Shown in pieces: positions 4,119 through 58,783 of a DNA stretch of 64,000 nt. The position numbers and the translations under genes were made by a program. This stretch comes from Candidatus Woykebacteria bacterium (GTDB lineage: Bacteria > Patescibacteriota > Microgenomatia > Woykebacterales > RBG-16-39-9b), in contig JBBDPM010000001.1 in the NCBI GenBank assembly GCA_040876345.1, positions 33,619 to 97,618 of the forward strand, in the 5' to 3' direction. Position 1 is the stretch's first letter; every line of letters starts with the position of its first letter. Under the pieces are notes generated by a model. The model was not told the origin of the DNA and searched no databases. It saw only the letters and a list, made by a program, of their open reading frames with translations.

Positions 4119-5246
4119 ATGGATTTTTATGCGGAAGCTATCGCGCAAGCGAAGAAATTGGGTGGAAAAATAGAGATAAAGTCCAAAATCAAGATTCAAG
4201 ATAAGGAAGATTTGTCGATAGCTTACACGCCTGGTGTAGCTGGAGTATCTTTAGAAATAGCCAAAGATAGAAGTAAAGTCTGGGATTTAACAACTAAGGC
4301 AAATTCAGTCGCCGTAGTGTCGGATGGAAGTGCCGTTTTGGGACTTGGGGACATTGGGCCTGAGGCGGCACTGCCGGTAATGGAGGGTAAATGCGTTTTG
4401 TTTAAAGAATTTGCAAATGTTGATGCCTACCCTATTGTTCTAAACACAAAGAGTGTCGATGAAATTGTGTCGACAGTTTCAGCAATTGCTTCAGGTTTTG
4501 GAGGGATAAATCTAGAAGATATTTCTGCGCCACGTTGTTTTGAGATTGAAGACTCACTTCAAGATCTTGGTATTCCAGTGTTTCATGATGACCAACACGG
4601 TACGGCAATTGTGGTACTGGCCGCTTTGCTAAATTCACTTAAAGTGGTAGGTAAAGAATTGGACGATATCAAGGTAGTTATTTTTGGAGCTGGAGCGGCT
4701 GGATTGGCAGTTGCAAGAATTATCAATCCAGCCTCGATTGTCCTCATTGACTCTAAAGGGCCGATAAATTCTGAAAGGAAAGATCTGAATGACTATAAAG
4801 CAGAAATTTTGGCCGGCGAAAATTATCTTCAAGCTTCAACTTTGGAAGAAGCCTTTAGCGGGGCCGATGTTTTTATTGGCGTTTCTGGCAAAGGTAAGAT
4901 AGATCAAGGTCTTATCAAGCGGATGAATAAGAAGCCGATAATTTTCGCTCTTTCTAACCCAGATCCAGAGATTATGCCGGAAGAGGCAAAAAAGGCAGGG
5001 GCCTCTATTGTGGCAACTGGCAGGAGCGATTTTCCAAACCAAATAAATAATGTGCTTGCGTTTCCAGGAATTTTCCGGGGAGCTTTAGATAATAAAATTA
5101 AAAGAATCGATACAAAAATCAAGATAAAAGCAGCTGATGCTTTAGCAGGAATAGTCGAAAAACCAACCTCCGAGCAGATTTTGCCATCTCCATTCTCCAA
5201 AGAAGTTGTTAAGGTAGTAGCCACCGCGGTCAGAAATTATGATTAA
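4119..5246 (+). CDS. NAD(P)-dependent malic enzyme (short form)
   Basis: 375 aa; malic-enzyme signature region AYTPGVA..., Rossmann GAGAAG, ACT-less short architecture. Confidence 0.8.
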   Translation: MDFYAEAIAQAKKLGGKIEIKSKIKIQDKEDLSIAYTPGVAGVSLEIAKDRSKVWDLTTKANSVAVVSDGSAVLGLGDIGPEAALPVMEGKCVLFKEFANVDAYPIVLNTKSVDEIVSTVSAIASGFGGINLEDISAPRCFEIEDSLQDLGIPVFHDDQHGTAIVVLAALLNSLKVVGKELDDIKVVIFGAGAAGLAVARIINPASIVLIDSKGPINSERKDLNDYKAEILAGENYLQASTLEEAFSGADVFIGVSGKGKIDQGLIKRMNKKPIIFALSNPDPEIMPEEAKKAGASIVATGRSDFPNQINNVLAFPGIFRGALDNKIKRIDTKIKIKAADALAGIVEKPTSEQILPSPFSKEVVKVVATAVRNYD

Positions 5247-6354
5247 CCATGACAACCTTGGCCCAGAAAAGTTGTTGGAAGTTTACGATCCAAAAACTGG
5301 CATGAGAGGCCTTTTGGTAATTGATAACACTTGGCTTGGGGTGGGTAAAGGTGGTTTGAGGATGACTCCGAACGTTAGCCTCAAAGAAATTTTCCATTTG
5401 GCGCGGGTGATGACTTACAAAAACGCTTTAGCCGAACTACCATTTGGTGGGGCCAAATCTGGAATAATCGCCGATCCAAAGAAGATTTCCAAGGTAGAAA
5501 AATTTGAGCTTGTGCGGGCTTTCTCCAAAGCCATTAAAGATCTTTGCCCCTCTCTCTATGTTACTGGACCAGATGTTAACACAGGAGAGCGCGAGATGGC
5601 CGAGTTTGTGAGTGCTAATGGATCTCTAAAGTCCGCCACAGGGAAGCCAGCGGATATGTGTGTAAAACCTGGGGTTGAGTGTGGTATTCCCCATGAATTT
5701 GGCTCAACTGGATTCGGAGTGGTTCAAGCCACCTTGGAAGCAATCGAATTTTCAGGAAAAAAAGTCAAAGACATGAAGGTAGCAATTGCTGGGTTTGGTA
5801 ACGTTGGCACCTTTGCGGCAAGTCTTTTAGATAAGGAAGGAGCAAAAATTGTAGCTATATCTGATAGCTCAGGAACAACTTGTAATCCAAGCGGTTTAAA
5901 TGTCCAAAAAGTTTTTGATGTTAAAAAGGAAAAAGGAAGTGCTGGCGAAAATCCGGATGGGGAAAAATTGAGGCCAGAAGAAATCTATGGTTTGGAGGTT
6001 GATATTCTTATTCCAGCCTCTTTAGGCGGGGTTATAAATGAAACTAATGCAGGTGCGGTGAGATCAAAAATAATTGTGGAAGCTGCAAATCTACCAGTTA
6101 GTAAGGAAGCAGAGGAAGAGCTAAACAAGCGCAATATTTTAATTATTCCCGATATTATTGCCAATGCGGGTGGAGTTGTCTCTTCCTACGCCGAGTATCG
6201 GGGTTATAACCCAAAACAAATGTTTAAGCTAGTTGAGAGGAAAATTAAGAAAAATGTTAAAATGATTTTGGAAAAATCAAAAGAAGAAAAAAAGACCCCT
6301 CGCGAAGCTGCGTTAGAAATTGCTACCGAAAGATTAAATAAATCCCGCACCTAG
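5239..6354 (+). CDS. Glu/Leu/Phe/Val dehydrogenase family protein (glutamate dehydrogenase-like)
   Basis: 371 aa; catalytic-lysine motif LPFGGAKSGI, NAD-binding GFGNVG. Confidence 0.8.
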   Translation: MINHDNLGPEKLLEVYDPKTGMRGLLVIDNTWLGVGKGGLRMTPNVSLKEIFHLARVMTYKNALAELPFGGAKSGIIADPKKISKVEKFELVRAFSKAIKDLCPSLYVTGPDVNTGEREMAEFVSANGSLKSATGKPADMCVKPGVECGIPHEFGSTGFGVVQATLEAIEFSGKKVKDMKVAIAGFGNVGTFAASLLDKEGAKIVAISDSSGTTCNPSGLNVQKVFDVKKEKGSAGENPDGEKLRPEEIYGLEVDILIPASLGGVINETNAGAVRSKIIVEAANLPVSKEAEEELNKRNILIIPDIIANAGGVVSSYAEYRGYNPKQMFKLVERKIKKNVKMILEKSKEEKKTPREAALEIATERLNKSRT

Positions 6355-6494
6355 TAATCTGTCGTAATAATCCTAAATTTAAAGTAAGCTACCTACAAAA
6401 CCAATACCCGATACCCATAGTGTAATATTCCAAGTAATTATGATACAATTCGCTCGACTCAGATCCGATAAGTTCAACAAAGAAGGAGGGAATC

Positions 6495-6896
6495 GTGAAT
6501 TACGGTATTCTGCTCAGAATGGAAGAGCGTCCAGGCGGCTCAATGATGAGCGTTGGGCATATCCCGGTAGAAGCCAGGGGACTCTCAGAAGCGACTCGTG
6601 CCGCCTCCCGACTTCTGGCGGAGGGCAAGATCCAAATACCAGCGCCGTTGAAGAGTCTCTGGAAGACAATCTCGATGGGCGGACACATCGTGGAAGCCGA
6701 ACCTGGTGTGTGGGTAGACGCAGATGACTATGAGAAGATCCTTCATTGGACACCTCCGCTGCCCCGCATTCTACTACGGGTTCTTTCCCGATGGATCGAA
6801 CCACAGACGAATCTGAAAAGGAGTCAGATGATGGCGGCACTTGTCGGGACAGGTTGGGGTGACGCAGAACAGGCTTTCGTTTCTATCCTTCGTTAG
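6495..6896 (+). CDS. hypothetical protein, GC-rich, GTG start with strong Shine-Dalgarno (GAAGGAGGG 5 nt upstream)
   Basis: 133-aa ORF; local GC ~58% versus ~40% flanks; consensus SD; antisense ORFs in same span are low-complexity artefacts of GC-richness. Confidence 0.45.
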   Translation: MNYGILLRMEERPGGSMMSVGHIPVEARGLSEATRAASRLLAEGKIQIPAPLKSLWKTISMGGHIVEAEPGVWVDADDYEKILHWTPPLPRILLRVLSRWIEPQTNLKRSQMMAALVGTGWGDAEQAFVSILR

Positions 6897-7017
6897 CCCC
6901 CGCCTTGGGATTATCCAAGATCTTGGTGCCCGAAGAAACCACCTCGGGCGCCACCTTCTCCAGTTGATAATAAAGATCATTTTGTATATAGGATTGTTCG
7001 TAGCCAAATTCATTTAC

Positions 7018-7046
7018 TTGATTTTATTTTTTGAGGTATGTATAAT
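7018..7046 (+). promoter_or_regulatory. sigma70-type promoter of rpsL operon: TTGATT-17-TATAAT, ATG 8 nt after -10 (leaderless or near-leaderless)
   Basis: TTGATT 7018-7023, 17-nt spacer, TATAAT 7041-7046, rpsL ATG 7055. Confidence 0.55.
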
Positions 7047-7054
7047 CCCCAGTT

Positions 7055-7468
7055 ATGCCGACGATAACGCAGCTTGTTCGAAAAGGTAGAAAAAAGGTAG
7101 GCAAAAAAGTTAAGGCCACTGCTTTGCGTGGCTCTTTTAATGCAACGGCCAGGAGAACTACTCCAACTTTTAACCCCCAAAAAAGGGGTGTTTGTGTGGT
7201 GGTAAAGACAATGACTCCAAAGAAACCAAACTCAGCCCTTCGAAAAGTGGCCAGAGTCCGGCTCTCCAATCGGAAAGAAATTACTGCTTACATCCCAGGA
7301 ATTGGACACAGCCTGCAAGAGCACTCAATTGTTTTGGTTCGAGGCGGTAGAGTTAAAGACCTTCCGGGTGTTAAGTACCATGTTATAAGAGGCCATTACG
7401 ATACCGGTGGAGTTGAGGGCAGAAAACAAAGTAGAAGTTTGTACGGGACGAAACAACCCAAAGAGTAA
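7055..7468 (+). CDS. rpsL: 30S ribosomal protein S12
   Basis: 137 aa; [11 protein letters not shown]... canonical S12. Confidence 0.97.
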
Positions 7469-37655: not shown

Positions 37656-37730
37656 CGGGGTGTAGTTCATTGGTAGAACGCGGGGCTGGGGGTCCTGATG
37701 CAGGAGGTTCGATTCCTCTCACCCCGACCA
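37656..37730 (+). tRNA. tRNA-Pro (anticodon GGG), CCA encoded
   Basis: hand fold: 7-bp acceptor CGGGGTG/CACCCCG, D-arm GTTC/GAAC, anticodon loop CTGGGGG, T-arm GGAGG-TTCGATT-CCTCT, discriminator A, CCA. Confidence 0.85.
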
Positions 37731-54000: not shown

Positions 54001-54435
54001 ATGAAAAATACCACCAAAAAAACCGCGGCTGGCAAGACATTCACGGACGAGGAACGAGCCGCGATGAAGGAGCGTATCCAAGAGCTGAGGGCGGACAAAA
54101 CGGACGGGGAAAGCGACGTGCTCGCAAAGATCGCCGAGATGCCGGAACCGGATCGCGCCATGGGCAAGCGGCTCCATGCTATCATCAAAGCCAGCGCGCC
54201 AGAACTCTTGCCGAAAACCTGGTACGGGATGCCCGCCTATGCCAACAAGGATGGCAAGGTTGTCTGCTTCTTCCAAAGCGCGCACAAGTTCAAATACAGA
54301 TACGCGACATTCGGCTTCAACGACGCGGCGAACCTAGACGAAGGCCACATGTGGCCGACCTCCTTCGCGCTGAAGGAGTTGACTGCCGCCGAAGAGGCAA
54401 AGATCGGCGCCCTCGTGAAGAAAGCGGTGAGCTGA
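54001..54435 (+). CDS. DUF1801 (YdhG-like) domain protein, GC-rich (foreign composition)
   Basis: 144 aa; local GC ~58%; YdhG-like pattern. Confidence 0.6.
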
Positions 54436-58050: not shown

Positions 58051-58060
58051 AGTCGGGGCC

Positions 58061-58090
58061 GCCTGAGAAGCGAGAGACTGCTTCTCAGGC
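58061..58090 (+). terminator. strong hairpin GCCTGAGAAGC-gagagact-GCTTCTCAGGC after recA (no U-tract)
   Basis: perfect 11-bp stem, 8-nt loop, immediately 3' of recA stop. Confidence 0.4.
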
Positions 58091-58123
58091 GTTGGCCAGC
58101 ACTCCTTCCCCTAAGCGTTACAA

Positions 58124-58516
58124 CTAGGCGACCAAGATGACATTGGTACTGCGCTTCATACCGAAGACGTCGGTGTGGAGGTTGTACCAATTCTCACTCC
58201 ACTTACCCCCGCCTTGTATGCTTCGACGAACTTGCCTGGCGCCTTTGGTCAGATCTCCAGCCAAGTAGACTTTGCTGTCGCCGTGTAGAACTTTGAAAAG
58301 CTCTCCAAGTTCAAGGTCGGCGAGCTTGAACACCAAGATCATCTTGGTGCCTGGTTCTATGGAAACTGTCTCCCCGTGCTCTTGGGTCTGGAAGATGGCG
58401 GGAGAGCCGTCCGAAGAAGGAGTGGTAAGTGTCCACACCTCGTTACCATCCGCAGCAACCACCCTGGACCCTTCTCTTAGATCTTTGACAGCCGTTGTTA
58501 ATGCTGTCGTTGGCAT
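58124..58516 (-). CDS. hypothetical protein, GC-rich foreign gene inserted between recA and recX (start at ATG after SD AGGAGGTG)
   Basis: 130 aa from MPTTALTT...; GC ~57%; consensus SD 4 nt upstream; upstream part of ORF 58124..58684 judged non-coding. Confidence 0.45.
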   Translation of the reverse strand: MPTTALTTAVKDLREGSRVVAADGNEVWTLTTPSSDGSPAIFQTQEHGETVSIEPGTKMILVFKLADLELGELFKVLHGDSKVYLAGDLTKGARQVRRSIQGGGKWSENWYNLHTDVFGMKRSTNVILVA

Positions 58517-58783
58517 GTGACACCTCCTACTTCCAGAACTCCCCCCCACCGCTTGGGCGGTTTTGGGGGTTGTTGAATGTTGGGCTTTTGGATGGTCAGC
58601 CTTCTCACCTGGTGGCCAGTCACGTTGAAACGCCCACTCCTGGTCATCGACCAAAATTTTGTCGCCAGGCGACAGCTGTCCCACGAACCTTAGTTCCGTT
58701 GGCGGCGTAATCTTACCCCTTTCCCGCGTCTGCGCTGATAGCCGAAACCTCCCCGCCTATGGGCCATCTTATACCACAATTGC

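Follow-up and report, generated by a model that had tools for sequence, protein, structure and literature searches.

Orphan genes that are confined to one strain and lie in islets of odd composition are nothing unusual, and hypothetical proteins abound in CPR genomes. Among the closest described systems, the Lawrence-Ochman 'alien' ORFan islets are small segments with atypical GC, GC3 and amino-acid composition, which have no homologues and occur patchily among relatives at a syntenic junction. The phage 'morons' are single genes that bring a promoter and a terminator of their own, sit between conserved genes and deviate in GC content.

Here we describe a GC-rich islet that resembles both, the moron layout being mirrored by a promoter-like element, a single ORF and a stem-loop. 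It lies in a 64-kb window (the whole stretch of DNA that was analysed, 64,000 nucleotides) from a Candidatus Woykebacteria organism, a CPR bacterium known only from metagenome assemblies. Compared to the ORFan islets, it comprises just one gene in 506 bp, lacks direct repeats, a tRNA, an integrase and any other mobile-element gene, has no identifiable donor, and shows a GC3 lower than its GC1. Compared to the morons, it is located on the chromosome by the ribosomal str operon rather than in a prophage, and has no match to PHROGs, viral contigs or phage DNA. We consider it fairly probable that the islet represents a horizontally acquired, lineage-specific orphan gene organized as a small self-contained expression unit, which would have entered as a single-gene insertion from a higher-GC source into a variable intergenic slot between gdh and rpsL.

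The gdh-rpsL slot and its GC-rich occupant

The window displays the gene order rpoB-rpoC, three minus-strand genes (encoding a PPIase, a zincin and an RRM protein), malic enzyme (4119-5246), gdh (5239-6354), the islet, rpsL (7055-7468), rpsG, fusA, tuf and further ribosomal protein genes. The islet extends over 506 bp (6450-6955) with 54.9% GC and has sharp edges, being flanked by 95 bp at 29.5% GC upstream and 99 bp at 28.3% GC downstream, in a window of 40.7% GC overall. An earlier, sequence-only reading had described a GC-rich islet between gdh and the rpsL promoter in a genome of about 40% GC. The islet is confirmed, but the GC content of about 58% given for it is too high, as the stated interval 6440-7010 has 51.8% GC and only 100-bp sub-windows get to 60-64%. 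Against all 506-bp windows of the 64 kb, the islet has a GC z-score of +3.7. Only 0.23% of these windows reach its GC content, and all of them fall at three places: the islet itself, near 54.0-54.5 kb and near 58.1-58.7 kb.

A blastn search for a second copy in the rest of the window and in the loci of relatives returned only chance matches of at most 20 nt. Mobility signatures at the islet, namely an integrase, a tRNA, a target-site duplication or terminal repeats, were not found; the sole tRNA of the window is at 37656. The best pair of flanking repeats at the borders is 25 nt long, 72% complementary and AT-rich, which is unconvincing.

As the sequence comes from metagenome-assembled genomes and the composition switches abruptly, the islet might be an assembly or binning chimera, in which reads of a GC-rich organism were spliced into the CPR contig. 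However, identical islet DNA is present in six assemblies, namely three NCBI MAG contigs (375-469 kb) and three Logan contigs, which another pipeline had built independently from individual SRA runs, with 0 SNPs among them. Where Logan and NCBI loci were aligned with the window, ~7 kb across both junctions showed 0 mismatches, and the window is identical to JBBDVF010000004.1 (GCA_040903525.1) over 20 kb. A chimera would moreover require two joins 506 bp apart, placed on the promoter-SD boundary and on the hairpin described below, which is implausible. The identity of the DNA in six assemblies thus indicates that the islet is not an assembly artefact, and we regard a chimera as highly improbable.

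Among 5.8 billion protein clusters, the closest gdh reaches 84% identity, indicating that no close relative has been sampled. The synteny of malic enzyme, gdh and rpsL is nevertheless kept at five loci of relatives (L002, L004, L009, L011 and L014), none of which carries the islet. In L014 (gdh identity 70%) the slot is reduced to 54 bp, and in L004 (RBG_16_39_9b; 70%) it is a 310-bp spacer of 30% GC. The slot of L002 (84%) is filled by a gene of 38% GC encoding a 242-aa PsbP-like membrane protein, that of L009 (78%) by a Ham1-like gene and a 6PGD-like gene, and that of L011 (75%) by a 95-aa hypothetical gene and a 6PGD-like gene. None of the five slots is GC-rich or resembles the islet by blastn. 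The islet is therefore absent from every available relative, and as the content of the slot differs at each of them, it is a lineage-specific occupant of a slot that is variable across Woykebacteria. In L002, the closest relative, the translations also point to a pair of HicB-like and HicA-like genes (5544-6004) between malic enzyme and gdh, which suggests that the whole rpoC-rpsL interval gathers accessory genes in this lineage. With the nearest relative at 84% identity in gdh and six identical assemblies, the comparison lends no support to the earlier suggestion that the acquisition was recent.

The 133-codon frame and its predicted expression signals

The islet contains a 133-aa ORF with a GTG start (ORF133; 6495-6896, plus strand), which the sequence-only reading had correctly picked out. 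ORF133 has a GC content of 54.7% and occupies 402 of the 506 bp. Its predicted product is an orphan of 14.8 kDa with a pI of 8.1 and no hydrophobic segment; it is soluble, mildly basic, richer in Arg than in Lys (10 versus 5 residues) and probably helical. A Shine-Dalgarno (SD) site, GAAGGAGGG (6482-6490, plus strand), precedes the start codon. The earlier description of an SD followed by five nucleotides and GTG holds for the GGAGG core, which ends 5 nt before the GTG, whereas the spacer from the full GAAGGAGGG is 4 nt. The leader around the SD (6450-6500) is unstructured, with a fold z-score of +1.15. Immediately upstream, an extended -10-like element, TGaTACAAT (6441-6449, plus strand), lies in the AT-rich spacer ~45 nt before the GTG. 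This putative promoter has a weak -35 and was not reported by a consensus promoter scan, which needs 4/6 matches in both hexamers. There is no terminator-like site between the gdh stop codon and ORF133, so read-through from gdh would be an alternative source of the transcript.

Downstream of ORF133, a stem-loop at 6924-6953 (plus strand) begins 28 nt past the stop codon and forms a full 10-bp GC-rich stem, with arms GGTGCCCGA and TCGGGCGCC at 6925-6933 and 6944-6952, respectively. Its predicted folding energy is -19.9 kcal/mol (z -4.7), and 0/200 shuffles are as stable. A GC-rich terminal hairpin had already been recognized, but its location at 6938-6968 needs correction, as the arms lie ~14 nt further left. 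The stem is followed by ACCTTCTCCAGTTG instead of a U tract, and a terminator scan did not call it as the T run is missing. It is thus not a canonical intrinsic (Rho-independent) terminator, and might be a 3' end, a stabiliser or a terminator.

From these signals we propose that transcription of the islet would start from the extended -10-like element in the AT-rich spacer. The transcript would then present an unstructured leader of ~45 nt, an SD that suits the host and lies 5 nt ahead of the GTG, and 133 predicted codons, and the stem-loop 28 nt past the stop codon could end or stabilise it ~65 nt before the rpsL promoter.

The public annotation differs from this model. NCBI annotates only 73 aa of the frame (hypothetical protein WD231_00175, P0001), and the three NCBI MAG contigs encode this version, whereas an independent gene caller applied to the Logan assemblies chose 133 aa (P0122) and the three Logan contigs encode the exact 133-aa product. 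We prefer the longer form, because the 73-aa call leaves 220 nt of GC-rich 'leader' unexplained and 133 aa fill the islet. Thus, the public annotation probably truncates the gene, and the 133-aa GTG form with its consensus SD would account for the entire islet.

An open frame, a start codon and a ribosome-binding site are thus present, and the base composition of the codons was compared with that expected of a coding frame. The first codon position of ORF133 has 35% G and 11% T, as in real genes. Scored with a generic 55%-GC codon table, which was trained on only ten long ORFs from two 51-55% GC Planctomycetota loci (L005 and L006), the ORF133 frame is the best of six with +0.013 per codon, compared to -0.17 to -0.37 for the other five. 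For random open frames matched in base composition, the score is -0.13 ± 0.05 per codon (P 0.003 for ORF133), and both halves of the gene (codons 1-60 and 61-133) score highest in the ORF133 frame. Codon-position statistics therefore agree with a protein-coding gene as far as this small training set goes.

As the main alternative, the same DNA might be foreign non-coding debris, such as a remnant of a decayed gene or mobile element, in which ORF133 would be a chance frame and the SD-like purine run a coincidence. The length of ORF133 exceeds chance, but taken alone only at P 0.033, as 3.3% of dinucleotide shuffles also contain an ORF that reaches 133 aa. Moreover, three frames of the islet are poor in stops, with overlapping ORFs of 133, 108 and 95 aa (P 0.005 for the second and 0.002 for the third), and the low stop density is thus partly a property of the DNA itself. 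The 133-aa form was not called by NCBI, it has no homologues at all, and AlphaFold2 run on the single sequence without an alignment gave no fold, its pLDDT of 37 being uninformative either way. However, the chance of a GGAGG core lying at a workable distance upstream of the longest frame's first possible start is only ~1.2% (P ~0.012), independent of ORF length, and the codon model prefers ORF133 over the five other frames and over random open frames in both halves. Debris would also leave the layout to coincidence, with ORF133 filling 402/506 bp and the hairpin just past its stop. The competing frames translate to Ser/Arg/Pro-rich products, of which neither the antisense 108-aa ORF nor the 95-aa ORF has a Pfam match; the antisense ORF also has no PHROGs match and no plasmid match by tblastn. 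We therefore regard debris as unlikely, though well short of negligible, and the intrinsic evidence, which is drawn from the nucleotide sequence, favours coding in the 133-aa frame.

We also considered a structured non-coding RNA of ~500 nt, GC-rich in an AT-rich genome, in which ORF133 would be incidental. The GC-rich stretch begins right after the -10-like element and ends at the stable hairpin, as a putative transcript of this kind would. In a sliding 120-nt scan, the window 6680-6799 (plus strand), which lies inside ORF133, folds into a long imperfect hairpin with a z-score of -3.5, a value that may be due to chance since it rests on 60 shuffles only and 42 windows were tested. Against an RNA, the fold z-score of the whole islet is only -1.2 on the plus and -1.5 on the minus strand, and the local scan stays at ~0 over most of the islet body on both strands, with 6680-6799 and the region of the 3' hairpin as the exceptions. 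A search with Rfam 15 left the islet region unmatched even at E-values up to 1, as did a search of the whole window at the gathering threshold. There is also no second copy in the window or in relatives, and no related sequence from which covariation could be read. With neither a family match nor excess folding energy over the islet, a structured RNA is decidedly improbable. The sequence-only reading had linked a lack of any conservation of the ORF to a non-coding structured element; the lack of conservation is indeed found, but the structured element finds no support in Rfam or in the folds.

Homologue searches and possible function

Searches for relatives of the 133-aa product, which had been proposed as a check on the gene, yielded no homologue beyond the organism's own sequence. 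A word-indexed search of 5.8e9 clustered proteins returned self-hits only, as did a full phmmer search against 1.84e9 cluster representatives. Comparison with Pfam gave only a zinc-ribbon fragment at an E-value of 0.21, PHROGs, NCBIfam and PADLOC gave no match, and the best hit among PDB sequences had an E-value of 0.24, which is no match either. No match was found by tblastn against plasmids, and peptide-pattern scans of metagenome contigs and viral contigs detected no relatives. At the nucleotide level, a 'distant' blastn search of the islet against plasmids and phages returned nothing. With no homologue of ORF133 in any database searched, a donor cannot be named, and the high-GC donor that the earlier reading had invoked remains without a counterpart in these collections.

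The result also weighs on the reading that we favour, as the absence of homologues in all databases searched leaves no evolutionary evidence of selection on ORF133. In addition, the identical copies, which offer no variants for a dN/dS, the stop-poor DNA, the small codon table, the pLDDT of 37, the 73-aa call of NCBI, the missing mobility signature and the GC3 below GC1 all count against a horizontally acquired gene. As for function, our best guess, which is speculative, is that ORF133 encodes an accessory protein which is specific to the strain and dispensable, as often travels on mobile DNA, perhaps an immunity, anti-defence or toxin-related factor.

Base composition and two further GC-rich islets

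The composition of ORF133 differs clearly from that of native genes. Its GC1, GC2 and GC3 are 0.63, 0.46 and 0.55, compared to native means of 0.50, 0.36 and 0.37 (0.37 ± 0.08 for GC3), and its GARP/FYMINK ratio is 1.65 versus 0.79 (z +3.3), ranking second among 69 ORFs after ribosomal protein L16. A comparison of codon usage and GC3 with core genes, suggested earlier, thus places ORF133 far from native values, and together with its absence from relatives this agrees with the claim that the composition points to a higher-GC foreign source. The GC3 of 0.55 is lower than the GC1 of 0.63, an unusual pattern for a gene newly received from a donor of 60% GC or more, so that partial amelioration or a donor of ~50-55% GC would be needed.

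The translation signals that had also been taken as a mark of foreign origin do not serve as such. The earlier contrast with mostly leaderless or weak-SD native genes holds for the majority, as 17/21 called genes nearby have no SD core of at least 5 nt, but rpoC, tuf, rplW, rpsC, recA and others possess AGGAGG-type sites. Since native genes such as rpoC, tuf, rpsC and recA share these sites, the SD of ORF133 matches the host's own strong SDs and is not a sign of foreign origin.

Host-type expression signals, along with the lack of a donor and a GC3 that is only moderately raised, would suit a native origin, with a gene that is old in this lineage or arose in it de novo and whose GC and amino acids reflect the protein's own composition. 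However, no relative has the islet although the malic-gdh-rpsL block is otherwise syntenic, a spacer of 28-30% GC cannot yield 55% GC by de novo origin, and the GC content is shifted upward at all three codon positions. The other two GC-rich islets in the window, described below, include one proven import. A native origin hence appears improbable. Overall, deviant composition and codon usage are combined here with absence from relatives at a conserved junction, while neither a donor or homologues nor mobility signatures were found. The absence from relatives, the variable slot, the shift in GC3 and GARP/FYMINK and the precedent of the DUF1801 gene make a foreign, higher-GC source the best reading.

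The first of the two further islets harbours a DUF1801 gene (54001-54435, plus strand), which encodes 144 aa in a 57%-GC islet and has a GC3 of 0.76. Its product shares 60-73% identity with proteins from Deinococcus, Arthrobacter, Streptomyces, Nonomuraea and other high-GC bacteria, with a borderline Pfam match (26.7 bits against a cut-off of 27.2). This gene has clearly been imported into the 41%-GC CPR genome from a high-GC lineage. Both it and the ORF133 islet are GC-rich single-gene inserts of similar size in the same genome, but they differ in that the DUF1801 gene has a Pfam domain, homologues and a GC3 of 0.76, whereas ORF133 is an orphan with a GC3 of 0.55.

The second (58060-58700, 54% GC) contains a 130-aa ORF (58124-58516, minus strand) between recA and a recX-like gene. 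This ORF is preceded by an SD, AGGAGGTG, five nucleotides before its ATG, and followed past its stop by a GC-rich stem-loop that has a perfect stem of 11 bp and no U tract (about 58066-58095); a homologue search in 5.8e9 protein clusters returned only the sequence itself. The recA-recX islet therefore resembles that of ORF133 in its GC content of ~54%, an orphan product of ~130 aa, a strong SD and a U-less GC-rich stem-loop. The two orphans nevertheless share no sequence similarity, and the recA-recX orphan lies on the strand opposite to its own neighbours.

Altogether, at least three GC-rich single-gene inserts are present in 64 kb of a 41%-GC Woykebacteria genome, one of them demonstrably from a Deinococcus- or actinobacteria-like source, a hint that a CPR bacterium has received genes from high-GC neighbours or hosts. 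A bolder extension, to which we assign a slim chance, is that ORF133 and the recA-recX orphan founded unsampled families, and that an unknown mobile element or a phage brought them into this CPR genome or they derive from the genome of a high-GC host. If so, both orphans would trace a path by which genes pass between CPR episymbionts and high-GC hosts, and might have a role in their interaction.

The relatives' loci provide two further observations. In several Woykebacteria, only 7-9 nt separate a TATAAT box from the ATG of rpsL, the first gene of the str operon, which implies a leaderless mRNA for ribosomal protein S12. In the window, the rpsL promoter (TTGATT-17-TATAAT; 7018-7046, plus strand) lies outside the islet, and the ATG follows 8 nt past the -10 hexamer, giving a leaderless-looking gene. 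The close arrangement of promoter and ATG spans 7018-7057 in the window, 7955-7993 in L002, 7412-7451 in L004, about 6740-6765 in L009 and about 1795-1814 in L018; L014 is the exception, with an rpsL leader of ~29 nt and no SD. The second observation concerns two database entries. L002 is OZ246414.1, a 915-kb chromosome labelled 'uncultured Gammaproteobacteria bacterium', which possesses a Woykebacteria-like gdh (84% identity) and also a syntenic malic enzyme-gdh-rpsL-rpsG-fusA block, and L003 is DASVHF010000072.1, labelled 'Candidatus Nanoarchaeia archaeon', with a Woykebacteria-like gdh of 71% identity. The taxonomic labels of both look wrong.
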